DNA of 64,000 bases from an uncultured Candidatus Saccharibacteria bacterium. GTDB taxonomy: Bacteria > Patescibacteriota > Minisyncoccia > Phycocordibacterales > XYD1-FULL-46-19. A model generated the notes under the pieces. That model was not told the origin of the DNA and searched no databases. It saw only the letters and a program-made list of their open reading frames with translations. The stretch spans positions 31,187 to 95,186 of the forward strand of contig CAZXCI010000003.1 in assembly GCA_964639285.1 (NCBI GenBank). The letters are read 5' to 3'. The translations under genes and the position numbers were made by a program. Positions 20,555 through 48,821 of the stretch are shown here, in pieces. Every line of letters begins with the position of its first letter. Position 1 is the first letter of the stretch.

Positions 20555-20757
20555 ATTTTTTATTTTTAAGACTTATTAATATTAAACTTGTGGATATGTT
20601 GATAAGTTTAATATATCTTTATAGATAAAGAGTTTTTGTTTTTTTAAATTACCCATTCCTGTTAATTAAAGTGTTTATAAAAATCTTTTTTAAAATATCA
20701 ATTCAACTCTTGTTTTTTATCCCCAATTAATACTAATCTTTATCCCAATTTTTTCCA
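20555..20757. promoter_or_regulatory. AT-rich dnaA-dnaN intergenic region with DnaA-box-like 9-mers (TGTGGATAT at 20589; TTATCCCCA at 20717; TTATCCCAA at 20740): candidate oriC / DNA-unwinding element
   Basis: DnaA box consensus TTATCCACA with one or two mismatches, both orientations, in a roughly 75 percent AT spacer. Confidence 0.45.
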
Positions 20758-22152: not shown

Positions 22153-22161
22153 TATAGTGAT

Positions 22162-22222
22162 TGTGGATAAACAAGCAAACTTCCCTAATTTGTTTATATA
22201 TGGTGGATTACTTGTGGATTAT
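22162..22222. promoter_or_regulatory. Cluster of three co-oriented DnaA boxes upstream of dnaA (TGTGGATAA perfect at 22162-22170; TGGTGGATTA; TGTGGATTA at 22214-22222): oriC / dnaA autoregulation region
   Basis: Exact reverse complement of TTATCCACA plus two one-to-two-mismatch copies within 60 bp. Confidence 0.55.
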
Positions 22223-22230
22223 TTCAAACC

Positions 22231-22258
22231 TTGCCAAAAGACAAATTTTTGTTATACT
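22231..22258 (+). promoter_or_regulatory. Sigma70-like promoter for rpmH-rnpA-yidC (TTGCCA - 16 nt - TATACT); the predicted start site lies only 1-3 nt before the rpmH ATG (leaderless)
   Basis: Hexamers seen directly; ATG at 22267. Confidence 0.4.
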
Positions 22259-22266
22259 AGCGGGGT

Positions 22267-22407
22267 ATGTCATTTACCTACAAGCCATCTAAGAAGAAAA
22301 GAGCTACCACTCACGGCTTTTTGTCTAGAACCAAAACTGCTAATGGTAAAAAAGTTTTAGCTCGTCGCCGTACTAAGGGACGAAGCAGTTTGTCTGTTTC
22401 TAAATAA
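22267..22407 (+). CDS. rpmH: 50S ribosomal protein L34
   Basis: [46 protein letters not shown], a classic L34 sequence; below the ORF-track length cutoff. Confidence 0.85.
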
Positions 22408-22758
22408 ATGCTTCCTAAAAACAGGAGAATATCCACCTCTCTTCTTCTCCCGGCGCTTAAAAGAAGCACTGTTTATTCTTCTGAAAATCTAACCCTCAGA
22501 ATTCATCGTCTATCCCCTAATGAACAAACTAAACCCGCTAAAATTGCCATTATCGTCCCCCGTAAGGTCAATAAATTAGCTGTTGATCGTCATCTAAGTA
22601 AAAGAAAAATTAGCGCTTTTTTAGAAAAAGAATTAAAATTAATTAAGCCTGGCCAATATCTTATTTTTCAAATTAAGAAAGATATTGCCAAGCTCCCTTC
22701 TTTAGTGTTAGCACAAGAGGTTAAGGGTCTTCTTTTAAATCATGATTGCCTTTTTTAA
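22408..22758 (+). CDS. rnpA: Ribonuclease P protein component
   Basis: Immediately follows rpmH (stop/start abutting); basic 116-aa protein with an RnpA-like LLKRSTVYSSENLTLRI region. Confidence 0.75.
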   Translation: MLPKNRRISTSLLLPALKRSTVYSSENLTLRIHRLSPNEQTKPAKIAIIVPRKVNKLAVDRHLSKRKISAFLEKELKLIKPGQYLIFQIKKDIAKLPSLVLAQEVKGLLLNHDCLF

Positions 22759-23488
22759 AGTTATCCTCTTTATTCCCCTATATAACCTCCTTGTTTTTAT
22801 TACCTCGGTTATTCCTGGTGGAGATTTGGGCTTAGCAATAATTATTCTAACGCTTTTGGTGAAACTGCTTATTTTTCCTCTCTATACCAAGTCTGTCAGA
22901 ACTCAAATCAAATTAAAATCGGTAGAAGCGAAACTAAAAGAAATCAAAGAGAAATATAAAGACAATCTCTCCGAACAGTCTCGTCAAACAATGGAACTTT
23001 ATCGACAAGAAAGGATTAATCCTTTCTCAACAATTATTGTTCTTTTTATCCAAATCCCAATCATTATCTCTCTTTTTTATGTCTTTAGAGATAGCTTTAC
23101 TATCCACACTGAGATTCTTTATTCTTTTATCACCGCTCCTCTTCAGATCAACACCAATTTCTTGGGTTGGTTCGACTTGACGGCGAGTAGGAACATTATT
23201 CTGGCGGCCTTAACCGGAGTCACTCAATATCTTCAGGTTCGTTATTCTCTTCCCCCTCCCCCCATTAAAGATAAAAAAGTTGGTGAATCTTTCAAAGAAG
23301 ACTTGATGCGTAGTATGGACCTTCAGATGCGTTACTTTATGCCCCTAATAACTGTCTTTATTGCCTTCACTCTTCCCTCGGCTATTGCCCTCTACTGGAT
23401 AACAAGCAATAGCTTCTCAGCCATCTATGAGTTAATGGTGATTAAGAAAATAAAGAAGGAAGCCGAGCTTTCTAAAGTGGCAAACTAA
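22742..23488 (+). CDS. yidC: Membrane protein insertase YidC (short Oxa1-type)
   Basis: Five-TM 248-aa protein, conserved YidC core (PLYTKSVRTQIKLK..., LIFPLY), rpmH-rnpA-yidC synteny. Confidence 0.8.
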   Translation: MIAFFKVILFIPLYNLLVFITSVIPGGDLGLAIIILTLLVKLLIFPLYTKSVRTQIKLKSVEAKLKEIKEKYKDNLSEQSRQTMELYRQERINPFSTIIVLFIQIPIIISLFYVFRDSFTIHTEILYSFITAPLQINTNFLGWFDLTASRNIILAALTGVTQYLQVRYSLPPPPIKDKKVGESFKEDLMRSMDLQMRYFMPLITVFIAFTLPSAIALYWITSNSFSAIYELMVIKKIKKEAELSKVAN

Positions 23489-26581: not shown

Positions 26582-28414
26582 CTAATTAGGTGTCGCCCCG
26601 GCTTGTCTAGATGTTTCGAAGTCAGCTTTAGCTTTCTTAATCGCTAAAATTTGTGACGGATCAGAAGTAATAATTTGCTCTTCAGTGTAAGAGGCGATAA
26701 CTTTGATTTCTACTCGCTTGAGACCAGCAATGAAGATGCCGTGACCGATGGGGGCCTCAAGTAAGAAGTATTTCTCTTCCTCGGTGAGGTTAAAAGTTTT
26801 TTGGACAAGATCAATAGACGCAGAAGATTGTTTGAGGAGTATTTGGATAGAACCGTTGGTGATAATTGGCCCACCATACTCAGACTTTAGGAAGTCATCA
26901 ACATCCTGGGTAATTGTGGCAACCCCGAGATAATATTTGCGACCTCTTTTTACCAAAGAATACAGGAAGGAGGCGGCATCTTTGGACTTCATCATAACCC
27001 AAGCCTCATCAACAACGAAGAGGCGTTTCTTAAGATTACGACGAATAGCATTCCAGATGTGGTGAGTAATGATATACATGGCAACAGCCTTTAATTCCTC
27101 CTCCATGTCTCGAATGGAGAAGACGACGAATTTCTTGTTGATGTCAACGTTCGTTGGCTTGTTAAGGAAGCCAGCCCAAGTTCCTTGGGTGTATTTAAGG
27201 AGGCGTTGGGCCAAAGACTCCCCTCCTTCCATCCCCGCTAGGACTAATTCTAGGTCAGAGAGAAGTGGGGCTGGTTTATTAGTGAAATCGGAGTCAGGGG
27301 TAATATCTTTAAGGGCATAAGTTTCAGAAATAGCGTTGTCGAGGATAGAATCTTCCTCTGGGGTAAGTCCGCCGAGCATAATGCGGAAGAGCCCTACGAG
27401 GTTGATGATGTTTGAGCGAAGAACGTCTGATGGCGCCTCATCTTCACGAGGAAAAGGTAGGTCAAAGGGATTAAGGTGGTGTTCGGAAGTTAGTGAGATA
27501 TTGAAGTAACGGCCGCCAACCGCTTCAGCCAAGAACTCGTATTCCCTCTCTGGGTCGATGACGAGAACATCGGTGTCAAACATGAGGCTACGGAGAATCT
27601 CCAGCTTGGTCGTAAAAGATTTTCCTGAACCAGATTTAGCAAAGATAACTGAGTTGTAGTTCTCTAGGGAAAAACGGTCGAAGATAATAAGGGAGGAGTT
27701 ATGAAGGTTTTGTCCATAGAGGATACCTTTATTAGATGTTAAGTCAAAAGAAACAAAGGGAAAGATGCTTGAGAGGGGGGAAGAATTTAACTTAGAGTTA
27801 ACCCCTAAGTAGTCAGTGGCAAAGGGCACTACACTCTTGAAGCCTTCATCTTGCTGGAAGAGAGCCGTCTTGAGATAAATGAGGCGGGAGTCAAGAATTG
27901 ACTTAACCTCATTTTCTACATGTTCAAGCTCATCTTCGTTGTCGGCGTAGATGGTAAGGTAGAGACCGACGTTAAATATCTTCTCAGTAGCTTGCTGTAA
28001 TTGGTCACGAAGGTTCTCGATATCAGCCTGGGCGGTATCGAGTTGGGGGTCACGAACCATTCCCTTCTGCTCTCGGACCATTATCTGACTCTCTACCTCG
28101 GCAATTTTTTTCTGCAGGGCGCGAAGGGCAGTAGTGGTATCTAATGGATGAATGAAAATAGAGATATCGAAGACTTTATCTAAATTTACAATCGGAGAAA
28201 ACCATTCCTCAGGCAAGAAGCGGGGGTAGGAAATGACGAAGAGGGTTCGAGCGACCTTCTCGCCGAGATTGAGGTTCTTGGGGGTAATACGAAGAGCAGA
28301 AGGGGCAATAATATCCCGCAGTTCAAGCTCCCCCATCTGGTAGATATCTTGAGGGAAAATAGGAATAAGGTTTTCCTGTTTCTTGTTTGATTTGCCTAAA
28401 AAGGGTATCTTCAT
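26582..28414 (-). CDS. VirB4/TrbE/TraC-family conjugal-transfer ATPase, C-terminal two thirds (contains Walker A and B)
   Basis: Walker A FAKSGSGKSFTTK, Walker B LFVVDEAW, AAA-like (DUF87) architecture; the N-terminal region resembles the start of the ATPase part of Gram-positive ConE/TrsE-type VirB4. Confidence 0.75.
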   Translation of the reverse strand: MKIPFLGKSNKKQENLIPIFPQDIYQMGELELRDIIAPSALRITPKNLNLGEKVARTLFVISYPRFLPEEWFSPIVNLDKVFDISIFIHPLDTTTALRALQKKIAEVESQIMVREQKGMVRDPQLDTAQADIENLRDQLQQATEKIFNVGLYLTIYADNEDELEHVENEVKSILDSRLIYLKTALFQQDEGFKSVVPFATDYLGVNSKLNSSPLSSIFPFVSFDLTSNKGILYGQNLHNSSLIIFDRFSLENYNSVIFAKSGSGKSFTTKLEILRSLMFDTDVLVIDPEREYEFLAEAVGGRYFNISLTSEHHLNPFDLPFPREDEAPSDVLRSNIINLVGLFRIMLGGLTPEEDSILDNAISETYALKDITPDSDFTNKPAPLLSDLELVLAGMEGGESLAQRLLKYTQGTWAGFLNKPTNVDINKKFVVFSIRDMEEELKAVAMYIITHHIWNAIRRNLKKRLFVVDEAWVMMKSKDAASFLYSLVKRGRKYYLGVATITQDVDDFLKSEYGGPIITNGSIQILLKQSSASIDLVQKTFNLTEEEKYFLLEAPIGHGIFIAGLKRVEIKVIASYTEEQIITSDPSQILAIKKAKADFETSRQAGATPN

Positions 28415-28417
28415 ATC

Positions 28418-29086
28418 TTATTTTTTTGGTGATTCGTCGATGGTCGGAGTCCCAGATTCTCCGGGGTTAAAAATCTTAAAGTAAATCTCGATTAACTCTT
28501 CAGTCTCTAAGATCTCATTTCTTAGGCCAACACGAGAAAGTCCGCTTCGGATAACATTGACACGTTGGTTGAGCTGGGCAACATTCTCTTCAAAATTGCT
28601 GTTGGCGATTTCTTGACTCGATGATTTATCGTTACGACCCAAAAGACCCGACAAGAATCCCCCTTTTCGGGTGTTTAGTATTGGCGGAGTATAAGGAATG
28701 ACAACAAAGAAATTCTTAGTCATGACGTTATGGGTATCGGTAAAAAATTTGATGAACTCAATGTACTCCTTAATCTGGACCTTCAGAAGCTCGTTTGTTT
28801 GGGCGAGCTTCCTCTCCTCTAAGATATTCAGATATGGTCTGATATCAAGACGTCTCGATTGAATAAAAATCTGGATAGAGAAGTCGATAGAGTTTAGAAA
28901 ATTCTGAAATTCGGCAATAATGGCCAGGCGCTCATCACTTGACTTGAGTCCGAAGTTAACTGAAGAGACCATAACCAAAGAGCGGAGAGAACCATCCTTG
29001 AGAACCGCCACCCCGCTCCTGATCTCTCTGATCGGGACGAAGTCTTGGGTCGTATTAGAAACCTTTATAATATCTTTAAAGTCCAT
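28418..29086 (-). CDS. VirB4-family N-terminal domain encoded as a separate 222-aa ORF (stop TAA directly abuts the ATG of the ATPase ORF)
   Basis: FKDIIKV...VAVLKDGSLRSLVMVSSVNFGLKSSDERLAIIAEFQNFL...IQIFIQSRRLDIRPYL matches the N-terminal pattern of Gram-positive VirB4 homologues (IKDG...ILEV.PINF.L.S..E...II..F). 222 + 610 aa is about a full VirB4. Confidence 0.55.
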   Translation of the reverse strand: MDFKDIIKVSNTTQDFVPIREIRSGVAVLKDGSLRSLVMVSSVNFGLKSSDERLAIIAEFQNFLNSIDFSIQIFIQSRRLDIRPYLNILEERKLAQTNELLKVQIKEYIEFIKFFTDTHNVMTKNFFVVIPYTPPILNTRKGGFLSGLLGRNDKSSSQEIANSNFEENVAQLNQRVNVIRSGLSRVGLRNEILETEELIEIYFKIFNPGESGTPTIDESPKK

Positions 29087-29196
29087 CCCGTTAGAAACAG
29101 ATCGCGATCAAAAAATCGCTCTCTCTTCTTAATTTATTTTTTAATAATATCGGATTCATGTTTTGTTTCAATAAGTTATTTGAGCGATCGCGGTTT
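29087..29196. repeat. Intergenic 110-bp element bounded by a perfect 11-bp inverted repeat (CCGTTAGAAAC ... GTTTCTAACGG) with internal GATCGCGATC palindromes and an AT-rich core carrying a minus-strand promoter-like TTGAAA-16-TATTAT
   Basis: Seen directly; fills the exact gap between the PrgI-like gene stop and the VirB4 N-domain ORF start. Confidence 0.4.
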
Positions 29197-29637
29197 CTAA
29201 CGGGGTCCATTATCTTCTTCTTTTAAATTAGTATTGTCTTTAACATCGAGACTCCAGGAGAGTTCCTTCAATTTACTCTCAGAGAGTCGAGGGAGATTGA
29301 GGTTGGCTGTGGTCTCTCCGGCCGTTTTTGTTGTAGATTTTTGAGTAATGACCTGGCGTTCAGACTTCTTCCATAAATAGAGTTTCTTGGTGGTACTATA
29401 CTTGAAGAAGGATTCAGCTAGAAAAATGAAATCTCGACCGTTGTATTTGTAGAAAGTTAGAGCGGCGGCTAAGCTAAGACAGCCAAAGATGAAAAAAATT
29501 GATATATAGATAGGTAGATAAACGTAGAATATAAAGCTAAGACCAACCCCGCCCGCCATGTAGAGGAATTGTTTGAAGGTAAATGGCCCAAAAACCTTAT
29601 CTTCGACTTCAATAAATTGTGGAACTTGGAATTGCAT
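29197..29637 (-). CDS. PrgI-family / VirB3-like small membrane protein
   Basis: MQFQVPQFIEVEDKVFGPFTFKQFLYMAGGVGLSFIF... N-terminal pattern and two-TM topology typical of PrgI-family proteins that sit immediately upstream of VirB4 in Gram-positive T4SS. Confidence 0.5.
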   Translation of the reverse strand: MQFQVPQFIEVEDKVFGPFTFKQFLYMAGGVGLSFIFYVYLPIYISIFFIFGCLSLAAALTFYKYNGRDFIFLAESFFKYSTTKKLYLWKKSERQVITQKSTTKTAGETTANLNLPRLSESKLKELSWSLDVKDNTNLKEEDNGPR

Positions 29638-30193: not shown

Positions 30194-32713
30194 TTAGAAA
30201 GCTGCTCCTCCTTGACGAGGATCGTTTAGGTATTGATAAGCGTTCTCGATGGTTCGGTCTGTCGGGTGAGGACCTGCACCACGATGGTGTTCGATCGCAG
30301 TTCTGATCGCTTGCCTCTCTGTATGTGGAACACCCATAGTTAAGGCACTTCGCAACTGTTCATTTGTTAGATAGGGGTATATGTCAGCATAAGCACCATT
30401 AAAGAGGTCGGTATTGGTGGCAAATTCGACAAATTCTGGCCCTGCAAGATTTCTTAGGGCATTTATTCTATTTATCTCATTAGGATTAGCAGCTGCCCAT
30501 GCTGGATTAAAGGAAGACATTGGGTGGGCAAGGGGCGTTCTCCCTGGGGTTCCAATATTTAATTCGGCCGTTGCCTGTTCTGTTCTGTTGACTCGACCCC
30601 TTTCTCTTGCCACTTCGCCCCTCGCTGTGGCTGTCGTCCTGGCATTTCTTTCAAAGGCCCCTCTTGCTGTTGCAACGTTAGCTCCTAGTGCCGATGGTAT
30701 TGGTGGTGCGCCGGCTACTCCTGGTGTGGGAGGAGCCATCCTGTTGACAAAAGCTTCAAGGTCCGCCTTTTCTCTGGCATTTAATCCTTCATAGAGATTA
30801 TTGAGCTGAGGTCCATCTAGGGAATTGAGATGGGCTAGTCTTTCGGCATCATTCCCTGGGTCGATTCCTCTCCAAGAGGCGGCGGATGTTTCTCTTGCTG
30901 CTCGTCCGCTTCCACTGGCTAGGAGTCTATTGGCCTCATTTCCTCGCCCTTGAGTTCTTAATTGCTGGACGACAGTGGCCTTGTCCTCTGGTGATAAGCT
31001 ACGGAAATAGGCATCTCTATCATCAGTTGACCTCAAACGTGACATATAAGAGGCTCTTTGGGCCCCAGCTTGTGGACCAGTGAAACCTGCGGCCCTCTGT
31101 TGTTGAGCTCTCTGTCTTTCTTCCACTCTTGTTCTGTAACCACGAGTGCCTGTGCCAAAGCCAGAGTTACCAATAGAACCAAGCGCTCGTCGGGCCCCCA
31201 TTGCTACTCGTCCAGTGATTGGTCTTGCCGACGAGGCCCAGGCCTGCATTCTCTGGCTCGTTGCTAGCCGGTTAGCAAGGTTACCGACGGTGTAACCTCC
31301 GGCTATACCGAGGGCTCCAAAACCGAGTCTCCTGCCCCAACTTCGGGCAGCCCCGGCTCCAGCGGCACCAAGGCTGTTTGCAATTAAGATACAGCCAAAG
31401 AGAAGGCCAACAATCATGAAATTCATAAAGACAAGGATCATTGGCCCCATAGACCCTAAACTGTTGGCGTCCTTGCCCAGTAGTCCTCCGATTCCATCCT
31501 TTAAGAAAATGAAAACTACATAAAGTGGAACGATTATTCCAGGGGCAACGAAGGCTTGATGAAGAAGTTTCTTAAGCCAGGTGTCAAAGTGATGTCTACC
31601 ATTTGGTATGACGTATAAGACAAAAGCAATGGGTGAAATAACATAGAGAAAAATAAGATAAACAGTTCTAATGAGAAACATAATTGACATAGCTATTAGG
31701 ACAAAACAAGAAACCAGAATAATAATAATGTTCCCGAAAGTTTGAATAATTATACCAGCGATACTTAAGCTCCCGATCACTGGGGCGAGAATAATGACTT
31801 CATTTCCATCAGCATCAGTCGCCTTAACCGGGATTGAAGGACCACCAAGAAACTGTTGGCTTAAATTTAGCTTACTAACTAATTGTCCGCCGATGCCAAG
31901 TTTGTTTCCCCCTGTCGCGATACCACCACCCATCTTGACGTAGAATTCATAAGCAACAACATTGGAGGCATCGATAATGATTCTAGTGAAGAAACCGCTG
32001 AAGTTGACAAGGAGAGCAATAATTATAACATTGACGATTAATTTCTTGGGATCACCTATTCCTTGGAGTTCAAAAATTGTCCCGATGGCGATATAGAGTA
32101 AGATGAAAACAAAACAGAGATTCCCGATGTCACGCAATACTGTCCAAGCGTTATCGATGCCGGAGTTTATTAACCAATCCTTTACGCTTAGGATAGAGAC
32201 TTTTATCGAGATATCTAGAATAGTTCCTGCGGCGACTAAGAGACTACCAAAGACCCAAGTTAAAGCATCGCCGATGGCGGCGAGGACTCCCCGGACACAC
32301 CCTCCGATATTTAAGGGGCTACAAGAATCATCTTGGTTTGCTTCAAGGTATTGTCTAGCTGATTCTTCGTCAACAAATTTTCCTCTAAATTCTCCAAATC
32401 CTCCTCCTGATATGAGAGCAGCTTCTCGCATGGCAGCTAAACCCTCTTTTTGGCTTTTCCCTACAGACAGATCGGGGAACCAGGTAAAACCGTAATTATG
32501 AAGGGTTGAAGAGACTCCTGATACAGGGTTCAGTATCATCGCCCCATAATGTAGCCCCATGTCCCAGAAATTACCAACCACTGATGTTATCGGTGCACTA
32601 TAACCTCCACCGATAGGAACGTTCTGGCTTAGGCTTATCAGGGGGAAGACTATTGCTAAGAGCAATACCCCTGAGATAAGAATATTTATTTTTAATTTCT
32701 TTCTTAAGCTCAT
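30194..32713 (-). CDS. VirB6/TrbL-like polytopic membrane protein (839 aa) with a long Ala/Arg/Gly-rich hydrophilic C-terminal tail
   Basis: N-terminal signal/TM, extracytoplasmic segment, at least 6 closely spaced TM helices in the middle third, then a roughly 380-aa low-complexity tail; architecture typical of TrbL/VirB6. Confidence 0.5.
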   Translation of the reverse strand: MSLRKKLKINILISGVLLLAIVFPLISLSQNVPIGGGYSAPITSVVGNFWDMGLHYGAMILNPVSGVSSTLHNYGFTWFPDLSVGKSQKEGLAAMREAALISGGGFGEFRGKFVDEESARQYLEANQDDSCSPLNIGGCVRGVLAAIGDALTWVFGSLLVAAGTILDISIKVSILSVKDWLINSGIDNAWTVLRDIGNLCFVFILLYIAIGTIFELQGIGDPKKLIVNVIIIALLVNFSGFFTRIIIDASNVVAYEFYVKMGGGIATGGNKLGIGGQLVSKLNLSQQFLGGPSIPVKATDADGNEVIILAPVIGSLSIAGIIIQTFGNIIIILVSCFVLIAMSIMFLIRTVYLIFLYVISPIAFVLYVIPNGRHHFDTWLKKLLHQAFVAPGIIVPLYVVFIFLKDGIGGLLGKDANSLGSMGPMILVFMNFMIVGLLFGCILIANSLGAAGAGAARSWGRRLGFGALGIAGGYTVGNLANRLATSQRMQAWASSARPITGRVAMGARRALGSIGNSGFGTGTRGYRTRVEERQRAQQQRAAGFTGPQAGAQRASYMSRLRSTDDRDAYFRSLSPEDKATVVQQLRTQGRGNEANRLLASGSGRAARETSAASWRGIDPGNDAERLAHLNSLDGPQLNNLYEGLNAREKADLEAFVNRMAPPTPGVAGAPPIPSALGANVATARGAFERNARTTATARGEVARERGRVNRTEQATAELNIGTPGRTPLAHPMSSFNPAWAAANPNEINRINALRNLAGPEFVEFATNTDLFNGAYADIYPYLTNEQLRSALTMGVPHTERQAIRTAIEHHRGAGPHPTDRTIENAYQYLNDPRQGGAAF

Positions 32714-35700
32714 ATACTCATTGTCTTCTGGGTTGTCCCTTTGTCATTGGTGCAATCTAATTTATATTCTCTGGCGGTGGTGGAAGCGGTGACAAGGAGG
32801 TTTGCTCGCTTGGTGAGACTATCCCCTTTTTTCTTAATGATCTCTTCGCCGTTGGCCCAATCATTTCCGGCTTTGCAGTCGGTGGCATTGGGTGAAGCCC
32901 AGTAGAGAAGATATTGGCCGTCTCCCTTATCTTTATCAGCAAAGTAGACGAGAGGCTTAATATTCTTATAAGCGTTGGCTAGGAATTCTATGAGTAATTC
33001 TAGTAGATTGAGACTGTCAGATGACGGAGAGTCTGATTCCCCGATTACTAAGTCGAGTAAACCGGTGAAATTTGACCATTCGGTGCCTCCTTCACCCCCA
33101 TCAGTGCCATCACCATCATCGCCTTCACCAGTTCCTCCCTCGGTTCCCCATTCGCTCGTATCGGGAGTATAAGTGCTAGCTTGTTCAATTTGGTCAGGAA
33201 TCCCGTCAGGGCCGACCATGCCCGGGCCAGGGGCCCCACCCCCGTCAGTCGTGGGGGTGAAGTTGTAGAGCTCACTCACGTTCGGCTCATTGCCCACGTT
33301 GATATCACCCATATCTTTGGCTGTCTCATATTGCGTTAGCCTGGTTCCCATTCCTTGAGCAGCTGTTTCTTTGACGATACTAGCAGGAGTTTGGGTTTCC
33401 CACATAATACATGTTTTGATTGAAGAATCTTCTGGGTCAGTAATCCATTTATTGCATTTTCGGACCGGAAGGAATCCTTGGCCAGCGATCATCTCATCTC
33501 GGACATTTGCTTCGGCTAAGGCCTGACTTCTTTTTAGTTGATCATTGGCGATTAGATAGCTACCATAACGGTTGTTTTGCGGTTGGAACATTTTGAGTAG
33601 GGCTGTCCAATATTCTGCGTCTGTGTAATCCTCAGAATCTGAGGCTTCTTCTTCCGCATAACTAGTTTTTATCCCAAAGAGGGAAGACAGTTTGTCTATC
33701 GGATTAGCCAAATAGCCTAAGAAAGGGATGTTTCTCAGTGTGGCAAGAATCGAAGTATTTTTTTCTTGAGCAACTATTTCTTCCGACTGATCACTGGCCT
33801 TGAACCCATTTTCTTCGGCGGAGCTGATTATTTTTATCTCTTTCTCTGTAAGCGTTGGCTGGAAAGGACGGCCAACTGAATCTATCTGCAAGGCATCGGC
33901 GATCTCATCTTTGTACATGTTCTTTGAGTTTCTAATGCGATCAAGGACAATTCTTTTTGCTTCATCTCTTGCCTGAGCGATTAAGACTCCTTCGTTGACG
34001 ACATAGAGAGGAGCACTATTCCCGTTGGAGTCTTGATATCCCTTTTTAATAAGCCCTTCTTCTCCCAACAGCGCCCCCTTATACTGTTCAATCACTGTTG
34101 AGGCGGCTCGTCTTACGGCGGCATCCTCAACCATTTTTTCTTCAAATCTCTGTTGGATACGTTTAACGGCGCGGATATGGGTACAAATTTGAACATTTAA
34201 CTCTCTTATCTCTCTTGTTCTTCTCTCGATACTATTGGTTAGACTCATTAGTTGGCCGTTTTGCTCGACAACCGGGACATAGAGACCACCGGTGACAGTG
34301 TCTGTCACGGTATCGACGACCGTGTCGACAACTCCCCCCTCGTCGAGGATCCCTTCTAGTCCGGGAATGCTGTTTATAATATCGCTAACACCTGGTAATT
34401 CGTCTAAGGCACCAGAGAAGTCATCGATAAGACCATCGACAGATAGTCCGTTGACCATATCACCCAATAAATCTTCTGGTAGGTCAGAGAGGACACTGTC
34501 AACAATTTCGGGGAGGCCGTTGTTTAGAATATTGCCCAAAGCCCCTTCGCCCAAGAGGGAGAAGACGGTCTCACTCACGTCTCCGTCTAAGAAACTCAGG
34601 ACTTGATTGAGCTGGCCACCACCCAACTGGCTGAAGATGTCATTGAGAGAACTCATGTTGAGATTGCCAAGGATAGAGTTAAGGTTACCTTCACTCAAGT
34701 TACCGAAGATGCCGTTGATGGCCCCATCTCCGAGTCGTCCGATAATTCTATCAAGACTCCCTGATGAGATGTTGTCTATGACGTCGTCAAAATCTTCTAG
34801 ATTATAAGTATTGTTGATGAAGTTATTTAGAGAAGTATCGTTCAGGTCATTGAGCAAACTTGTCAGTTGAGAGGAAGAGAATTGAGTGAGGATGGTCTCG
34901 TTTGACTCGTAAGATAGCCGTCCAATAATACCACCAAGATTACTAGAGGGGAGTTCATCAATAACTTCACTTAGATTACTAATGTTTAAGTTTTCGAGAA
35001 CATGATTGAGGCTATCATAAGGGAGTTTGGTGATAATATCTCGAATATTTATTGTGCTCTCTGTTGGAGAGGAGAGTATCCGATTGAATGAGTCATTAAT
35101 TTGCGATTCGTCGAGAGCCAAAAGTATTTCTGATAAATCGGTGGGGGTGGCCTTATCTAAGTCAACCGGTGTTGTCCCAAGGAGAACAGTCCTTACGGGG
35201 TCGGTCTTCTCAGCATGCACAAGGTTATGAAGAGATAAGTTGTCAGAAAGGAAGTTATCAATATAAGTAATTAGTTTGTCCAAAGGCGAATCAATGAGGG
35301 CTGTTTTTCCCCCGCCGACAGTTCCGCTGAGTTTTGCGTGCCAATGATCACCATATTTTGCACCTTTTTCTCGAGTGAAGACGTCTCCGTTATCGAGATA
35401 ATGTGTTTTAAACTTGGTTTTTTTAGATATTGTGGTGCTTACTGTGTGTTTTTCAATATACTCATTGAGTTTTGCGTTGTCGGGACTATAGTCTACGACG
35501 TTAGCACCGGGTTTATGTTCAACATGCCCAGCCTCTGTTCCAGAAGTTATCACTAGGCCACCTCCTATTTCCCTATTTATCTCGGCGGATCGGTCGATTG
35601 AATGTTGGGGTAATCCGCCGACACTGGTACAGCCACCTTTGACCGTGCGGAAGTCTCTTCCTGCACAATCAGCTTTGTTCACGGTTATTCCTTCCGCCGC

Positions 35701-36276
35701 AAGTTTGTCTCTTGTTTCTTGTTCGCCTCCCGCTGGCTCTCCGTAACCGTTCGCTCCTTCTCCGCCTTGCTCGTCTGAGTCAGGATTCTGAACGGGGTCG
35801 CTATCGCTGGGTTGGCCTTGGTCTCCTGCCCCATCCCCTTCCCCAGTTGTGCCATCTCCTGTTCCGCTCCCCGTCCCGGTCGTGCCAGAACTTCCACCGC
35901 TATAACCGCCAGCCTCAGCTTCACAACGGATCTCGTCTTCTTTTTGGAGTTTGGCCAACTCTTCGGCTTCTTTGTCTGTAGTTTTCTTATCTTTCCCTAC
36001 TCTTTCTTCTAGGGAGTCTTCTCCGCTATTGCCACTGGCGCCATTACTGCCACTATCTCCACCGTCGCCTCCACTGTTGATGATGATGTCGGCGACGTCA
36101 TTTATATCAATGTCGCCAACGCTATCACTTCCTCCACCACTGGGGAAACCCGTATCAGGGACAGGAAGGTTAGATATCTGAGCCCCAGTATTTTGGGCGA
36201 TTAAGAAAATAACTAAGGCTGAGAAAATGACCAGAGTTAGTTTCTTGAATATATTTTGTGAGGTTCTCGTGGTCAT
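32710..36276 (-). CDS. Giant secreted/surface protein (about 1190 aa) with acidic Gly/Asp/Ser-rich N- and C-terminal regions and a central array of degenerate Leu/Asn/Ser-rich repeats
   Basis: Signal peptide after the internal Met (MTTRTSQNIFKKLTLVIFSALVIFLIAQNTGAQ); the ORF opens at 36321. Repeats of the form S/N-L-N-x-x-L-x-x-L-x-(I/L)-x-x (LNHVLENLNISNLSEVIDEL, LGGIIGRLSYESNETIL, LDRIIGRLGDGAINGIFGNLSEGNLNSILGNLNMSSLNDIFSQLGGGQLNQVLSFL). 4-nt overlap with the VirB6-like gene. Confidence 0.6.
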   Translation of the reverse strand: MTTRTSQNIFKKLTLVIFSALVIFLIAQNTGAQISNLPVPDTGFPSGGGSDSVGDIDINDVADIIINSGGDGGDSGSNGASGNSGEDSLEERVGKDKKTTDKEAEELAKLQKEDEIRCEAEAGGYSGGSSGTTGTGSGTGDGTTGEGDGAGDQGQPSDSDPVQNPDSDEQGGEGANGYGEPAGGEQETRDKLAAEGITVNKADCAGRDFRTVKGGCTSVGGLPQHSIDRSAEINREIGGGLVITSGTEAGHVEHKPGANVVDYSPDNAKLNEYIEKHTVSTTISKKTKFKTHYLDNGDVFTREKGAKYGDHWHAKLSGTVGGGKTALIDSPLDKLITYIDNFLSDNLSLHNLVHAEKTDPVRTVLLGTTPVDLDKATPTDLSEILLALDESQINDSFNRILSSPTESTINIRDIITKLPYDSLNHVLENLNISNLSEVIDELPSSNLGGIIGRLSYESNETILTQFSSSQLTSLLNDLNDTSLNNFINNTYNLEDFDDVIDNISSGSLDRIIGRLGDGAINGIFGNLSEGNLNSILGNLNMSSLNDIFSQLGGGQLNQVLSFLDGDVSETVFSLLGEGALGNILNNGLPEIVDSVLSDLPEDLLGDMVNGLSVDGLIDDFSGALDELPGVSDIINSIPGLEGILDEGGVVDTVVDTVTDTVTGGLYVPVVEQNGQLMSLTNSIERRTREIRELNVQICTHIRAVKRIQQRFEEKMVEDAAVRRAASTVIEQYKGALLGEEGLIKKGYQDSNGNSAPLYVVNEGVLIAQARDEAKRIVLDRIRNSKNMYKDEIADALQIDSVGRPFQPTLTEKEIKIISSAEENGFKASDQSEEIVAQEKNTSILATLRNIPFLGYLANPIDKLSSLFGIKTSYAEEEASDSEDYTDAEYWTALLKMFQPQNNRYGSYLIANDQLKRSQALAEANVRDEMIAGQGFLPVRKCNKWITDPEDSSIKTCIMWETQTPASIVKETAAQGMGTRLTQYETAKDMGDINVGNEPNVSELYNFTPTTDGGGAPGPGMVGPDGIPDQIEQASTYTPDTSEWGTEGGTGEGDDGDGTDGGEGGTEWSNFTGLLDLVIGESDSPSSDSLNLLELLIEFLANAYKNIKPLVYFADKDKGDGQYLLYWASPNATDCKAGNDWANGEEIIKKKGDSLTKRANLLVTASTTAREYKLDCTNDKGTTQKTMSI

Positions 36277-36280
36277 GTTA

Positions 36281-36973
36281 TTAATTACTGACAAAAATCT
36301 GGATTTTTTCGTTATCAGCAAAAGTTACCTTATTTAAAACAAAGAATTGGTTTAGCGTTTCGATAGATTTGATGAAGTCTGAATAATCATGGTTGAAGGT
36401 CTGGCTATTTTCCAGAGCGAGAGTCGGCTGAGACAAGGCTTGTTCCATATTCTTAAGACGACTGACAAGCAGATTTATTTGACTGACGATTTTGAAATGG
36501 CGGCTGGCCAATTCCTTGGGAACGGGAATTTTTGTCAGACTTAGAGCTACCTGCTCGTGGAGAATCCTAGAGAAGGTTACTGATTTGATGAACGAACCGT
36601 CATTTTTATCAATGGCCGACAGCACGGCCCTGGCCTCACTCTCTCTCCTCCCGCTTAGGGGTTTGAAGGTCTCGGCCAGACGAAGTCCGTAGGTTCGGAA
36701 GTCTTGCGGACTGCTTACTCCAGTAGTCGAACTAGCGATGATCGGTTTCTCGGCCAATTGACTGATCGAGACATTTGTTTTATTGGAGGAGAGTTCCTGT
36801 CGAGAGAGGTCCTCGAGGTTCTTATGTTTTTCTAAAATGTCGCTTAGATAAGCTTGTCGTTTTTTTTCTTCTCTGGATTTTTTTTGATGGCCGACAAACC
36901 ATAAAGAGACAATGGTAAGTACCACTAAAACAATCACTAGCCGTATCACATTTTTGCTTGGTAAATGGGCCAA
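36281..36973 (-). CDS. Membrane-anchored hypothetical protein (230 aa), first gene of the T4SS-like operon
   Basis: N-terminal TM (LVIVLVVLTIVSLWFV), coiled-coil-like remainder. Confidence 0.45.
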   Translation of the reverse strand: MAHLPSKNVIRLVIVLVVLTIVSLWFVGHQKKSREEKKRQAYLSDILEKHKNLEDLSRQELSSNKTNVSISQLAEKPIIASSTTGVSSPQDFRTYGLRLAETFKPLSGRRESEARAVLSAIDKNDGSFIKSVTFSRILHEQVALSLTKIPVPKELASRHFKIVSQINLLVSRLKNMEQALSQPTLALENSQTFNHDYSDFIKSIETLNQFFVLNKVTFADNEKIQIFVSN

Positions 36974-37058: not shown

Positions 37059-38096
37059 ATGAGAAATTTTTTTTTAATTTTTCTAATTTTGTTGATGGTT
37101 CTTCTGTCTTTCCCTACTCCCTCTTCCGCTCAAGTTCTGCCTTTTGGTGGGAAAATCCTCTATACAGACTGGTGTTCTTGTTCAATGAATTTACTCATTT
37201 ATTATTTGCGGGTTCGCGATTTCATGCCTCAACTTCTCTCTTATCGGGTCGGAGGGAGTAAGCTGTATTCTTATTATAATCTTACCGAGGGGATGGAGAT
37301 CTTGGGGACGACCGTTTCTCCTGATGTTTGTTTGACAGGATCACATTGCCATCCTCATCCTCTTGTCGCGGCCATGGGAACTCCTTGGCTAATTAGTATT
37401 GTCGGGACTTCTGACCCTTCTCATCGAGCCTCTGGCTCTGGCTCTGGCTCCGGTTCGGGCTCAGGTACAGGTACAGGGACAGACACGGGGACAACTGGCC
37501 CCACTTCGACCACGACCCCAGACGGAGCTCCTCCTTGTTCTAGTGATGCTGACCGTCTCGCTTCTAGTTATATTATGGCCAATGAGGGTTGGAGTAATTC
37601 CTGTTATCCCGATGCCGGAGGACGCTCGGTTGGAGTTGGCCACTTCATCACTCCTGGGGACGGGATTGATTGTAGCCGTCCTCTCTCAGATGCTGAAGTC
37701 CAAGAGCTCTTTGAAGAAGATTATCCTCAATATCGGGCTGATGCTGAAGCTTCAGCCGCTCGTAACGGTGTCGATTGGGATGCTTTGTCGCCAGAGCGAC
37801 AGGCGGTGCTCACTGATATGGCTTACAATATGGGAGCTGAAGGGGGAGGGGGGCTGAACGGCTTCACTGAGATGTGGGGGGCGATAAGACAAGCTCAATC
37901 AACCAGTGGGACCCAAAGTCAGCATCATTGGAATACGGCTGGTGATGAAATTATCGAGACTACGACACCTTATGGACAAGGTGCTCGAGCCGGGCGAAAC
38001 AGGACAATAATGAGGACGAATGGTAGTTCGACCATCAATCGCCAAGTTAATTCCGATCCTCACGCTAGAAATTATTGCGCTGAAGAGACAACTTAG
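37059..38096 (+). CDS. Secreted GH24 (phage/T4-type) lysozyme-like muramidase with an N-terminal Cys/His-containing domain and a (SG)n/(TG)n/Thr-rich linker; candidate VirB1/PrgK-type cell-wall hydrolase
   Basis: Signal peptide; linker SGSGSGSGSGSGTGTGTDTGTTGPTSTTTPDG; C-terminal domain ANEGWSNSCYPDAGGRSVGVGHFIT...LSDAEVQELFEEDY...NGVDWDALSPERQAVLTDMAYNMGAEGGGGLNGFTEMW parallels T4 lysozyme (EGYYTIGIGHLLT...KDEAEKLFNQD...[31 protein letters not shown]). Confidence 0.65.
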   Translation: MRNFFLIFLILLMVLLSFPTPSSAQVLPFGGKILYTDWCSCSMNLLIYYLRVRDFMPQLLSYRVGGSKLYSYYNLTEGMEILGTTVSPDVCLTGSHCHPHPLVAAMGTPWLISIVGTSDPSHRASGSGSGSGSGSGTGTGTDTGTTGPTSTTTPDGAPPCSSDADRLASSYIMANEGWSNSCYPDAGGRSVGVGHFITPGDGIDCSRPLSDAEVQELFEEDYPQYRADAEASAARNGVDWDALSPERQAVLTDMAYNMGAEGGGGLNGFTEMWGAIRQAQSTSGTQSQHHWNTAGDEIIETTTPYGQGARAGRNRTIMRTNGSSTINRQVNSDPHARNYCAEETT

Positions 38097-42036: not shown

Positions 42037-44400
42037 ATGCCCCCCCATCTAATTTTAAGTTTTGCAATTATTGTTGTCGTGGTCGCTGTGGCCGGTATTG
42101 TTCTTTGGTATAAGCGGAAGCATCGCCAATGGGAAAGTCTTAACCTCAAGATTCTTTCAATTAAGATTCCTCGGACCGGAAGCGAAGACAAAGTAGATTT
42201 TCTGAAGGAGATAAACTTGACCGAACAACTTTTTAATTCACTCTCTTCAATTAAACAGCCTTTTGTTTTTGAGCTGTCGGTTAAGAATGTGGGCGAAGAA
42301 ATTAATTTTTTCCTCTCGGTCCCTCGCTCGGTTGTTGATTTTGCTAAGCGGGAGATTCAAGGTCTCTTCTTAGACGCCAAGGTTGAGGAAGTTCCCGACT
42401 ACACCATCTTCCAACCGCAAGGGACGGCCGTGGCTGGTTATCTCGCCCTAGACAAAGAATATTTTTTACCGATCGGCACATACCAAGAGGCTCAAGCTGA
42501 TATTTTTGCCCCGATCCTAAGTACTTTATCTCGGGTTAATGAACGTGATGAGGGGGCTTCGGTTCAGATTGTCGTGCGCCCAGCTCCTGAGAAAACGAAA
42601 AAGACTCTCATTTGGGTCGCTGAAAAACTTAAAAGCGGGGCCAAGTTTTCCGATGTTTCTCGTCTTGGAAGCCTAAGTTTAAAAGATGTTAGTCAGGAGT
42701 GGAGTGGTAAACCAAAACCAAAGGAGGGGGAAGCCGGTCCCCCGCCCAAGATCGATGAAGAGATGGTCAAGGCGGTGGGACTTAAGCTGGCCAAACCGCT
42801 CTTCGAGGTTAATGTTCGTCTTGTTACCTCCTCGGTTGATGTTAACCGAGCGGAGGATATGTTTGTGGCTCTCTCGAGTGCTTTTTCTAAATTTTCTTCA
42901 CCGATTCGCAATGGTTTCAAAATTATCAAACCAAAGAAAAATCGTCACCTTGTCTTCAATTATGTCTTCCGTGATTTCAATCGTTATCAGACGATTGTTC
43001 TCAACACTGAAGAATTGGCCAGCATCTTCCACCTTCCAACTCACACTTCTGATGTCCCTAATGTCTCTTGGCTCCGGGCTAAGGAAGCCGCCCCTCCAGA
43101 AGTTATGCCCAAGGAAGGTCTCAAGTTGGGGGATAGTGTCTTCCGGGGAGCAATTAAAGAGGTTCGTTTGACCGACGAGGACCGTCGACGTCATCTCTAT
43201 GTTGTTGGGCAGACTGGTACTGGTAAATCTGTCTTGATTCAAAATTTGGCAATGCAAGACATGATTAATAATAAGGGTCTTTGCGTTATTGACCCTCATG
43301 GCGAGACAATTGAGAAGATCCTGGCTTACGTTCCTAAAGATCGGATTGACGATATTATTGTCTTCGACCCCGGTGATCGGGAGCGACCAATTGGGCTTAA
43401 TATGCTCGAATATGATTTTAACAAACCAGAAGAAAAAACCTTTATCGTTAATGAACTTCTGTCTATTTTTAATCAACTATTTGATAAGCAGGCGCTTGGA
43501 CCAATGTTTGAACGATATATGCGCGGAGCTCTCAATCTCTTAATGGACGATATGGTCAATGAACCGGCGACTTTGGTGGAAGTTCCCCGCGTTTTTACCG
43601 ATGACGAGTTTCGCAAGCGCAAATTAGCCCGCTCGCAAAATCAGCAAATCATCGATTTTTGGACAAAGGAAGTGCCTAAGACCTCGGGTGATCAGAGTCT
43701 TGGTAATTTTGCTCCCTACGTTTCGTCCAAATTTGATAATCTTATTTCCAATTCCTATATTCGCCCCATTATTGGACAACCCAAATCTTCTTTTGACTTC
43801 CGCCAAGCTATGGATGAAGGGAAGATTATTCTGGTAAACTTGTCTAAGGGTAAAGTTGGTGATCTCTCCTCATCTCTATTGGGCATGGTGATCGTAGGTA
43901 AAATTCTTAAAGCTGCTCTTTCTCGCGTTGATATTGCTGATGAGCGTTCTCGTCGGGATTTCTATCTCTATATTGATGAGTTCCAGAACTATACGACCGA
44001 ATCAATTGCTACTATTCTCTCTGAGGCCCGTAAATATCGGCTCAACCTTATTGTCGCCCATCAATTTATTGCTCAACTCAAAGACAACATTCGCGAGGCT
44101 GTATTCGGCAATGTGGGTAACATGATCTCCTTCCGAGTTGGCCCGCCTGACGCTGAGACCCTGGTTAAACATTTCGGTCCGGTCTTCAATGAGAAGGATC
44201 TCATTAGTATTGAGAATCTCAATGCTTTTACCAAGATTCTTGTCAATGGTGAACCGTCCAAACCTTTCAATATGAAGATTACTTGGCCCACGGGTGGCTC
44301 AGCCGTCGTTCGAGATGGTCTTAAGGAGCTCTCTCGCCTTCGTTTCGGCCAAGATCTCGACCAAATTGAGGAAGATATCCTTAAACGCCTGAGAGATTAA
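42037..44400 (+). CDS. Membrane-anchored type IV secretion coupling-protein-like ATPase (VirD4/TraG/TraD- or FtsK-like)
   Basis: N-terminal TM helix; Walker A HLYVVGQTGTGKSVLIQN; Walker B LYIDEFQNY; NLIVAHQ; overall 787-aa architecture typical of T4CPs. Confidence 0.55.
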   Translation: MPPHLILSFAIIVVVVAVAGIVLWYKRKHRQWESLNLKILSIKIPRTGSEDKVDFLKEINLTEQLFNSLSSIKQPFVFELSVKNVGEEINFFLSVPRSVVDFAKREIQGLFLDAKVEEVPDYTIFQPQGTAVAGYLALDKEYFLPIGTYQEAQADIFAPILSTLSRVNERDEGASVQIVVRPAPEKTKKTLIWVAEKLKSGAKFSDVSRLGSLSLKDVSQEWSGKPKPKEGEAGPPPKIDEEMVKAVGLKLAKPLFEVNVRLVTSSVDVNRAEDMFVALSSAFSKFSSPIRNGFKIIKPKKNRHLVFNYVFRDFNRYQTIVLNTEELASIFHLPTHTSDVPNVSWLRAKEAAPPEVMPKEGLKLGDSVFRGAIKEVRLTDEDRRRHLYVVGQTGTGKSVLIQNLAMQDMINNKGLCVIDPHGETIEKILAYVPKDRIDDIIVFDPGDRERPIGLNMLEYDFNKPEEKTFIVNELLSIFNQLFDKQALGPMFERYMRGALNLLMDDMVNEPATLVEVPRVFTDDEFRKRKLARSQNQQIIDFWTKEVPKTSGDQSLGNFAPYVSSKFDNLISNSYIRPIIGQPKSSFDFRQAMDEGKIILVNLSKGKVGDLSSSLLGMVIVGKILKAALSRVDIADERSRRDFYLYIDEFQNYTTESIATILSEARKYRLNLIVAHQFIAQLKDNIREAVFGNVGNMISFRVGPPDAETLVKHFGPVFNEKDLISIENLNAFTKILVNGEPSKPFNMKITWPTGGSAVVRDGLKELSRLRFGQDLDQIEEDILKRLRD

Positions 44401-44472: not shown

Positions 44473-45519
44473 GTGAAAAAGATCTGGATAGTCCCACTTT
44501 TTTTGTCTTTATTGCTAGTGGCGCAGACGGCCGAAGGAGGCATTTTCTCCTCTATTGTCGGCTTTTTTAGTCCTTCGGTGAGCAAAGTTAGCGCCAATGT
44601 CCTCCAAGAGGAAAACGAACAAACTGAGACAAATTCTCAAAATATGGACCTCTTAGAACCAGTGCTCGGGGAAACTTCGACGAGTTCCCCTCGTGACGAT
44701 GCAGAGATGTCCATTGTCAGTGGTGGTGCCGTTCTCCCTGAATCTGGGCCTTTAGGGACGATGGCTGATATTAAGGATACTCCAATGCCCTCAGATCTTA
44801 TTAGTGTCTATATTGTCCGTCCTGGAGACACCATTGGGACAATCGCTAAGATGTATAATGTCTCAGTCAATACTATTCGTTGGACTAACGAGCTTAAGAA
44901 AAGTGATGTTATTAAGCCAGGGGACAGCCTTATCATTCTTCCGATTACAGGTATCCAACACACAGTCAAGAAGGGTGATACAATTAAGAGCTTGGCCAAA
45001 AAATATGGGGGGAATTTTGAAGAAATTCTTGCTTATAATGATCTTGACCCCGCCAAGGGCTTGGTGGTTGGCGATACTATTATTATTCCTGACGGGGAGG
45101 AAAGTACGATCATCTCTTCGACTAAACCAGTGGCAAAGTCCCCATCTAAGTACAGTGGTCCAAGTTCCTCTGGTTACTTTATGAAGCCAGTTACTAATTA
45201 TCGCCGAACTCAAGGTCTCCATGGTTATCTTCACAATGCTATTGATATGGCCGCGTCTCTTGGCACCCCTATTTATGCGGCCGCTGAGGGTAAAGTTATC
45301 ATTGCTAAAGGTAGCGGTTGGAATAGTGGCTATGGTAATTATGTTGTTATCTCGCACCCTAACGGCACTCAGACTCTCTATGCTCATCTGAGTAAGTTAA
45401 ATGTCAGTGTTGGTCAACGCGTCGACAAGGGTGATAATATCGGAGGCATGGGTAGTACGGGCAAATCAACTGGTTCTCACCTTCACTTCGAGATTCGTGG
45501 CGCTTCGAATCCTTTCTGA
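44473..45519 (+). CDS. Secreted peptidoglycan endopeptidase: two LysM domains plus a C-terminal M23 (LytM) metallopeptidase domain
   Basis: Signal peptide; LysM repeats (YIVRPGDTIGTIAKMYNVSVNTIRWTN; HTVKKGDTIKSLAKKYGGNFEEILAYN); M23 motifs HNAIDMAA...YGNYVVISHPNGTQTLYAHL...GSTGKSTGSHLHFEI. Confidence 0.8.
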   Translation: MKKIWIVPLFLSLLLVAQTAEGGIFSSIVGFFSPSVSKVSANVLQEENEQTETNSQNMDLLEPVLGETSTSSPRDDAEMSIVSGGAVLPESGPLGTMADIKDTPMPSDLISVYIVRPGDTIGTIAKMYNVSVNTIRWTNELKKSDVIKPGDSLIILPITGIQHTVKKGDTIKSLAKKYGGNFEEILAYNDLDPAKGLVVGDTIIIPDGEESTIISSTKPVAKSPSKYSGPSSSGYFMKPVTNYRRTQGLHGYLHNAIDMAASLGTPIYAAAEGKVIIAKGSGWNSGYGNYVVISHPNGTQTLYAHLSKLNVSVGQRVDKGDNIGGMGSTGKSTGSHLHFEIRGASNPF

Positions 45520-48816: not shown

Positions 48817-48821
48817 ATTTG

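Follow-up and report, generated by a model that had tools for sequence, protein, structure and literature searches.

Gene clusters for type IV secretion systems (T4SS) in monoderm bacteria encode large, exported or membrane-anchored, multidomain proteins, e.g. PrgK of pCF10, TraG of pIP501, CwlT of ICEBs1 and Orf14 of Tn916. VirB1-type hydrolases combine hydrolase modules, and glycan- and peptide-cleaving activities are both supplied (PMC12857230). In Patescibacteria the systems are MPF_FATA-like, lie near the replication origin and mostly lack relaxases, and VirB1 homologues are rarely found near virB4 in most classes, with the exception of Paceibacteria, according to a T4SS survey (PMC12102498). 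Transposon sequencing has been applied to one species of Patescibacteria, which turned out to need the T4SS for its epibiotic growth (PMC10633639). Two genes of the T4SS cluster of Southlakia epibionticum ML1 were found essential by the same method, namely SEML1_0006 (lysozyme-like) and SEML1_0007 (1113 residues, with a Hedgehog/DD-peptidase domain at 951-1105), as stated in two reports (PMC10633639, PMC12102498). Apart from the ATPase, VirB3 and VirB6, the components of the T4SS of Patescibacteria are mostly without assignment. Here we describe a 1203-residue protein encoded in a T4SS cluster of an uncultured Candidatus Saccharibacteria bacterium, on a 64,000-nucleotide stretch of contig CAZXCI010000003.1 which is referred to as the window. 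We consider it reasonably likely that this protein is an exported, modular, extracellular T4SS subunit with a peptidoglycan hydrolase mounted on a rigid spacer, and that it takes a VirB1-type role.

The 1203-residue protein shares its size, its predicted export, its multidomain organization and its place in a monoderm T4SS cluster with PrgK, TraG, CwlT and Orf14. We propose by analogy that it could work like PrgK, TraG and CwlT without being their homologue. In contrast to these three proteins it has no SLT, CHAP, LytM or NlpC/P60 domain according to Pfam, and its module with the Hedgehog/DD-peptidase (LAS) fold is not contained in Pfam. It further possesses a solenoid with a period of 12 residues, a large core and an Ig-like domain, none of which has been described for the VirB1-type proteins of Gram-positive bacteria. 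The gene is located upstream of a VirB6-like gene, whereas the VirB1-type gene of Gram-positive systems is located downstream of VirB4. Compared by published description, SEML1_0006 and SEML1_0007 represent the same pair of activities as the locus in the window. The LAS-fold domain of SEML1_0007 is however C-terminal and its gene is found downstream of virB4, while the LAS domain of the 1203-residue protein precedes the repeats and its gene lies upstream of the VirB6-like gene. A subunit of this kind is not described in the accessible part of the Patescibacteria T4SS survey (PMC12102498) or in the 2025 nomenclature review, and a search for later work did not yield one. The new aspect is a predicted T4SS-associated wall hydrolase with an unprecedented architecture, which combines a LAS family outside the searched copies of Pfam-A and NCBIfam with a core of unclassified fold. 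The class of repeat that had been flagged in a first-pass annotation of this DNA is ordinary.

Probable hydrolase modules and their exchange among relatives

To collect relatives, 1.84 billion representatives were searched exhaustively with HMMER, which led to 389 related clusters. The segments of the query were mapped on the best 150 of these clusters, and 53 sequences were scanned with Pfam. The mapping revealed four separable modules. A core of about 340 residues, termed C1-C2, is common to approximately 100 of the best 150 representatives, while the N-terminal halves differ widely. This core defines a family specific to Patescibacteria. The features of the protein and of its neighborhood are collected in Table 1.

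The first of the variable modules lies N-terminal to the repeats (residues 197-335). Its AlphaFold2 model reached a predicted local distance difference test (pLDDT) score of 96.3, and the predicted fold matches proteins of the LAS or Hedgehog/DD-peptidase type (VanX, VanXYg, MepA, Sonic hedgehog N-domain); Foldseek of the model against the PDB returned no match. In an alignment of 42 sequences E263, H266, H269, D277 and H326 are invariant, H328 is found in 37 out of 42, and E318 occurs in 39 out of the 39 occupied rows. The resulting layout, H..H..(7 residues)..D ... E ... H-x-H, is thereby invariant or nearly so and, judged from residue conservation, would correspond to a pattern of zinc ligands and a catalytic glutamate. 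C219 and C231 are conserved as well. The only local match to E. coli MepA given by hhalign puts EAGHVEHKPGANVVDY on MepA NGGHASHQTGLDVDI (GH..H..G..VD on residues 107-121) and is weak as a whole. It places H269 on H113 and D277 on D120, which are zinc ligands of MepA. Between His and Asp the LAS domain has one residue more than MepA in this match.

Neither the 1203-residue protein nor the 42 LAS-bearing sequences matched a peptidase family of Pfam or NCBIfam (M15, M74), and the PDB yielded no meaningful sequence match to the complete protein or to the profiles of the LAS domain and of the core. Residues 197-335 are therefore described here as a divergent, uncatalogued LAS-fold domain, which by its conserved residues is probably an active zinc peptidase. 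Two features set it apart from VanX, VanXYg, MepA and hedgehog: an extra conserved pair of cysteines, and its fusion to T4SS pilins or to the core protein. The domain recurs in about 45 small proteins. Among the other proteins scanned, 23 out of 41 carry an N-terminal T4SS_pilin domain (PF18895, above gathering score) followed by a C-terminal LAS domain. To our knowledge, a conjugative-type pilin with an enzyme-like domain has not been described before. These fusions are a hint that the LAS domain can work outside the envelope of its producer. They have a length of approximately 300 residues (P0086, P0095, P0096, P0103, P0122 and others) and were seen outside the window.

The second hydrolase of the locus is a lysozyme. 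A secreted protein of 345 residues with a C-terminal GH24-like domain is encoded divergently in the window. This domain is missed by Pfam and is 39% identical (E 5e-35) to the core-fused lysozyme of the relative P0011; the position of the gene is conserved. The N-terminal part of the 345-residue protein is a Cys-rich domain of about 120 residues. Pfam Phage_lysozyme was detected in 5 out of 53 family members scanned. According to Pfam and the alignments, a GH24 lysozyme replaces the LAS domain together with the solenoid in, among others, P0011, P0012, P0016, P0018, P0020 and P0021, and P0014 has a lysozyme plus the solenoid.

Two types of loci can be distinguished. In type A (the window, L003, L006, L013 and L014) it is the core protein that carries the LAS domain, and L003, L013 and L014 show a separate lysozyme gene encoded on the other strand. 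In type B (L010, L012 and L015) the core protein carries the lysozyme instead, and the LAS domain is found in a free, divergently encoded protein with a length of about 300 residues (E 5e-26 to 7e-35). The free LAS proteins of L010 and L012 have the same N-terminal Cys-rich domain as the free lysozyme protein of the window. As this domain carries LAS in the former and lysozyme in the latter, it may represent a shared docking module for free hydrolases. Wherever a locus is long enough to include both genes, both hydrolases are present, and their positions are exchanged between the two types. In these loci the two modules are thus constant passengers that swap places. This exchange is the strongest evidence that the job of the protein is tied to cell-wall cleavage. 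The first-pass annotation had regarded the gene as coding for a giant repeat protein; an affinity to known enzyme families is found in part, with the LAS-fold domain N-terminal of the repeats and GH24 domains in the relatives.

Solenoid, core and export signal

The periodicity of the central region was tested by the mean BLOSUM62 self-similarity of residues 390-660 compared to shuffles, with a cut-off of |z| > 3. Peaks were obtained at lags 12, 24, 36, 48 and 60 (z = 7.1, 7.8, 5.6, 4.6 and 3.7); the remaining lags beyond the cut-off were weak or negative. Residues 429-644 form 18 units in a 12-residue register with zero indels and are preceded by three less regular units, which gives approximately 21 units and about 260 residues in total. 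In this register the recurring pattern consists of two to three hydrophobic positions and a Leu around position 5-6, and the units often end with Leu-Asn. The period was kept in 12 out of 12 full-length or repeat-bearing relatives tested (lag-12 z from 5.5 to 13). Tandem Repeats Finder detected no 36-bp tandem array in the DNA, and the protein repeats are therefore old and degenerate.

An AlphaFold2 model built with an alignment of 93 sequences contains 20 helices of about 10 residues connected by 2-residue turns in residues 393-635 (pLDDT 84-96). This confidence rules out a disordered low-complexity region, and the helical units with their period of 12 rule out a leucine-rich repeat (LRR) or a β-helix. 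The first-pass annotation had reported a Leu/Asn/Ser-rich core of degenerate repeats of 13-20 residues over some 300 residues, had suggested a solenoid or fibrous structure and had recognized no standard LRR consensus. By composition the center is indeed rich in Leu, Ser, Asn and Ile, it is predicted to be folded, and no LRR family was matched at E <= 0.1. The periodicity was thus seen correctly, but the unit is a strict 12-mer and the region is shorter.

What did not hold is the novelty of the repeat. Pfam MgtE_N (PF03448) was matched with 42.7 bits compared to a gathering score of 25.9 (E 8.7e-11; residues 426-503, two stretches), the short-helix superhelix has the period of about 12 that is typical of this class, and a fold search found known α-superhelices to be similar. 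The solenoid is real and confident and is no LRR, but it is of a known repeat class. The MgtE N domain is a cytoplasmic unit of about ten helices joined to CBS and transporter domains. Compared to this domain (PF03448, PDB 2YVX), the region described here has approximately 21 helices and is predicted to be an extracellular arm. A genuine MgtE transporter can be ruled out, as the protein has neither CBS nor MgtE channel domains, reaches 13 bits with TIGR00400 at a cut-off of 232.75, and possesses a signal sequence and conserved cysteines. MgtE_N scores of 45-144 bits were also obtained for proteins that share only the repeat with the 1203-residue protein, and seven proteins reach 72-144 bits. 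Since 5 out of these 7 also bear RTX repeats, a VgrG-type OB domain or Planctomycete extracellular motifs, extracellular use of the MgtE_N-type repeat is already represented in the databases.

Among specific structures, the repeat region was matched best by a phage receptor-binding protein in which an α-superhelix is combined with a β-sandwich. The arm of Gp22 from the Clostridioides difficile phage CDHS-1 (PDB 7QLR) is described as a right-handed α-superhelix in which each turn comprises three helices; the helices have 5-14 residues and the loops 1-3 (Gp22 paper). This is the same geometry as the one implied for the 12-residue solenoid. If three of the 21 helices make up a turn and each turn adds about 1 nm, the modeled arm would have an estimated length of approximately 7 nm. 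The number of repeats had been suggested as worth comparing between orthologues, and the length of the arm does vary: in ten LAS-bearing relatives the distance between the H-x-H motif of the LAS domain and the core motif ranges from 317 to 455 residues, a spacing equal to 26-38 units, with the 12-residue period kept.

The C1-C2 core is modeled with a 56-residue helix, further helices and a β-hairpin with the near-invariant C956 and C971 (pLDDT up to 97). No match was found for it in Pfam, NCBIfam or by PDB sequence search. The multidomain model used for the fold search also contained the solenoid and the Ig-like domain. Matches to these two domains made up the top 60 hits and dominated the search, which leaves the core unclassified by fold. 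Between solenoid and core lies the motif YVPVVEQxGxL, of which V, P, V, E, Q, G and L are invariant in the family while its pLDDT is only 29-45. It could represent a docking strand or a processing site. The short helix-like segment of residues 105-135 is common even to relatives with other middle modules. We infer that in the structure it forms a unit with the core, into which hydrolase and solenoid modules have been inserted. The folded modules are separated by acidic stretches with 26-32% Gly and 14-16% Asp (residues 51-100, 151-200 and 1051-1100) which vary in length among the relatives. The acidic Gly/Asp-rich flanks of the first-pass annotation are hence real, but they are linkers between folded modules and not simply the flanks of a repeat.

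The open reading frame (ORF) itself, proposed at 32710-36321 on the reverse strand, exists, and the same 1203-residue product was called on two independent public contigs. Its annotated TTG start is doubtful. An alternative ATG at codon 16 (window position 36276) lies 4 nt past the stop of the upstream ORF and leads to a conventional signal peptide, and for these two reasons it appears to be the likelier true start. Secretion had been predicted, in agreement with the N-terminal signal or anchor sequence and with a similar hydrophobic segment at the start of all relatives. Six cysteines are conserved in the alignments of the family; together with the signal sequence and with the fusion of the LAS domain to pilins in other proteins, they favor a location outside the cell.

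The T4SS cluster and its gene order

The stop codon of the 1203-residue gene overlaps the ATG of the downstream gene for an 839-residue protein (ATGA), and in locus L008 the ORF coordinates of the core gene and the VirB6-like gene show an equal 4-nt overlap. The overlap with a VirB6-like gene that had been pointed out earlier is therefore correct, while the label VirB6-like is derived from weak hidden Markov model (HMM) matches, namely to the MMCAP2_0566 family conjugal transfer protein (E 2.5e-4, below cut-off) and, for an orthologue, to TrbL_3. The position of the gene in the cluster is consistent with the label.

Related loci were found with a core alignment of 19 sequences. The relatives belong to Candidatus Paceibacterota, Vogelbacteria, Saccharibacteria-labelled and Patescibacteria-group metagenome-assembled genomes, and the bacterium of the window is itself most likely a member of the Paceibacteria/Vogelbacteria group. 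In all related loci examined the core gene directly precedes the VirB6-like gene, and all those that extend far enough encode a homologue of the 230-residue protein directly before the core gene. Where the contig reaches far enough, the order of the 230-residue protein, core, VirB6-like protein and then PrgI, TrsD-like protein and VirB4 is kept. It holds too for a relative of 654 residues which has neither the LAS domain nor the repeats. The first-pass annotation had suspected an association with a T4SS-like system, and the location inside the cluster together with the constant tie to the VirB6-like gene bears this out.

Table 1. Features of the 1203-residue protein and of the surrounding region (positions in the window; aa, amino acids or residue numbers of the protein; empty cells, nothing reported)
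Feature	Position	Strand	Basis
Whole ORF, 1203 aa as annotated from TTG (first possible start)	32710..36321	-	ORF list, independent gene calls
Signal peptide or signal anchor, aa 16-47: n-region MTTRTSQNIFKK, hydrophobic core LTLVIFSALVIFLIA, then QNTGA/Q	36181..36276	-	Sequence inspection
Gly/Ser/Asp-rich acidic linker 1, aa 58-104	36010..36150	-	Composition; length variable among relatives
N-terminal helix-like segment with Cys133, aa 105-135, R..D..QT..EA..L..LQ..D...C.AE	35917..36009	-	Alignments
Gly/Asp/Thr-rich linker 2, aa 136-196	35734..35916	-	Composition, alignment
Hedgehog/DD-peptidase (LAS) fold zinc-peptidase-like domain, aa 197-335	35317..35733	-	Fold, conserved residues
Linker, aa 336-392, predicted helices and short β-hairpin, low to moderate confidence	35146..35316	-	AlphaFold2
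α-Solenoid of about 21 twelve-residue MgtE_N-type repeats, aa 393-650	34372..35145	-	Register, Pfam, AlphaFold2
Motif Y681-VPVVEQNGQL-691	34249..34281	-	Alignment, AlphaFold2
Family-defining C1-C2 core, aa 697-1032	33226..34233	-	Homologue mapping, alignment, AlphaFold2
Acidic Gly-rich disordered linker 3, aa 1033-1080	33082..33225	-	Composition; pLDDT below 50 (AlphaFold2)
C-terminal helices and Ig/FN3-like β-sandwich, aa 1081-1203, conserved C1149 and C1190	32713..33081	-	
VirB6-like polytopic membrane protein, 839 aa, downstream	30194..32713	-	Weak HMM matches, position
Conserved 230-aa protein, N-terminal hydrophobic segment, upstream	36281..36973	-	ORF list, synteny
Secreted 345-aa protein, C-terminal GH24-like lysozyme domain, divergent	37059..38096	+	phrog_7 endolysin, E 1.7e-9
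PrgI (VirB3-like), TrsD/TraC-like protein and VirB4 ATPase of CD1110 family	26582..29637	-	HMM
VirB2-like pilin candidate, 147 aa	24726..25169	-	HMM
VirD4-like coupling protein	42037-44400	+	T4SS-DNA_transf, TraG-D_C; DUF8128 on the identical L001 product
LysM/M23 peptidase beside VirD4-like gene	44473-45519	+	HMM
dnaN, dnaA and yidC, directly beside the T4SS cluster	19451-23488		rnpA next on longer contig L001

The further members of the cluster were assigned by HMM. VirB4 reached 376 bits with the CD1110 family model (cut-off 325). The pilin candidate of 147 residues scored 19.9 bits with T4SS_pilin, which is below the gathering score, and matched the pilin part of the pilin-LAS profile with E 1.5e-17. 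This monoderm-type cluster agrees with the T4SS reported for Patescibacteria in the survey, also in its location beside dnaN, dnaA and yidC, which corresponds to the reported position at the replication origin (PMC12102498).

The VirB6-like protein continues from about residue 450 to its end at 839 as a long hydrophilic extension rich in Arg, Ala and Gly, i.e. an "extended VirB6". VirB6-like proteins of Southlakia epibionticum have C-terminal ARM-repeat regions according to a published structure-based table. The VirD4-like and LysM/M23 genes form a pair in the syntenic L003 as well. In Patescibacteria it is reported to be uncommon that a coupling protein is encoded close to the cluster. Further along the window, two adjacent genes at 47563-50132 on the reverse strand code for proteins of 417 and 436 residues which are extremely rich in Glu, Lys, Arg and Gln and resemble coiled coils. 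They cause the strongest AT skew of the window (-0.43).

Possible mechanism and alternative explanations

A mechanistic aspect arises from the division into constant and exchangeable parts. The constant part, composed of the helix of residues 105-135, the C1-C2 core and the C-terminal β-sandwich, would dock at the VirB6-like channel protein. We infer this docking from the conserved adjacency and the translational coupling of the two genes. Between the N-terminal helix and the core, the inserted cell-wall hydrolase module differs from lineage to lineage. In the protein described here the insert is the LAS zinc peptidase-like domain, which may be held off the core by the rigid, right-handed α-superhelix, with the acidic Gly-rich stretches serving as flexible tethers on either side of the modules. 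Together with the secreted GH24 lysozyme encoded next to it, the LAS protein could cut peptide stems and glycan strands locally. Such an opening in the peptidoglycan might let the channel or a VirB2-like pilus pass through the wall, either that of the producing cell or possibly that of a host.

Several points weigh against this mechanism. The combination of an α-superhelix and a β-sandwich is the layout of a receptor-binding protein and fits an adhesin as well as a spacer. The match to MepA is not significant overall (hhalign probability 4.5%). The LAS fold alone is no proof of catalysis, because Hedgehog, itself of this fold, is not known as a peptidase. Finally, the LAS domain could be redundant or otherwise employed, since an M23/LysM peptidase and a free lysozyme are already encoded in the region.

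The protein could instead be an adhesin or host-contact factor, as suggested in the first-pass annotation, whose superhelix and β-sandwich fasten the T4SS or its pilus to the host cell, with the LAS domain as a peptidoglycan- or ligand-binding module. We regard this as unlikely, even though the receptor-binding protein of the phage is the best specific match of the repeat region and the C-terminal domain is Ig/FN3-like. MgtE_N-type repeats next to RTX, VgrG-type OB and Planctomycete extracellular motifs would fit such a role as well, and so would the difference in repeat number between lineages, which is common for surface proteins. The role is also vacant, as no PrgB-type adhesin was found in Patescibacteria T4SS clusters according to the survey (PMC12102498). 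However, the repeats are dispensable, with many members having the core without them, and the module that takes the place of LAS and repeats in relatives is a lysozyme and not another binding module. The complete set of metal- and catalytic-type residues of the LAS domain is invariant, which is expected for an enzyme, and the Pfam scan detected neither a cell-wall anchor nor a known adhesin domain.

A more far-reaching idea, which we consider improbable, is that the C1-C2 family represents a missing extracellular adaptor, a functional equivalent of VirB5 on the VirB6-like platform. Interchangeable hydrolase arms, LAS or lysozyme and also fused to pilins, would then bore through the wall of the host to open a conduit for the epibiont, and the length of the solenoid would be tuned to the thickness of the envelope.

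As a VirB5 equivalent, the helical core on the VirB6-like platform would serve to nucleate the VirB2-like pilus or to cap it, a role proposed for TrwJ on TrwI of plasmid R388, with the hydrolase arm at the base or the tip of the pilus. In virB operons virB5 is followed by virB6, and the position of the gene directly upstream of the VirB6-like gene mirrors this order. The core is largely helical with its helix of 56 residues, a pilin candidate is found in the cluster, and LAS is elsewhere fused to pilins. VirB2-like pilins are known from the T4SSs of Patescibacteria, whereas a VirB5 has not been reported there (PMC12857230). Still, no Pfam match of VirB5 type was obtained for the 1203-residue protein or the 53 relatives scanned, the hhalign probability of the family profile against TrwJ of R388 was 0.7%, and with about 340 residues the core is much larger than VirB5 (about 220 residues). 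A nucleating or capping role is decidedly improbable on these grounds.

It is most improbable that the protein is a secreted effector or toxin, i.e. a Sec-released lytic enzyme that acts at a distance on host walls and apart from T4SS assembly: its Sec-type signal without an anchor and its LAS-fold hydrolase-like domain would suit this, as would the life of cultured members of the phylum as epibionts on or parasites of other microbes (PMC12102498), but the strict synteny and translational coupling with the VirB6-like gene across distant lineages favor a structural partnership, the most conserved part is the non-enzymatic core, and no immunity-like gene is evident.

The reading of the protein as a T4SS subunit with a VirB1-type role thus adds a conserved, so far unannotated subunit, paired with a VirB6-like protein, to the T4SS of Patescibacteria. 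It further adds a LAS-fold domain family which is missed by current HMM libraries and which is also a passenger of pilins, and evidence that lysozyme and LAS peptidase are obligatory passengers of the subunit which can take each other's place. H269, D277, E318, the YVPVVEQ motif and the length of the solenoid represent targets for the question of how an ultra-small monoderm pushes a channel or pilus through the wall, and possibly into a host.

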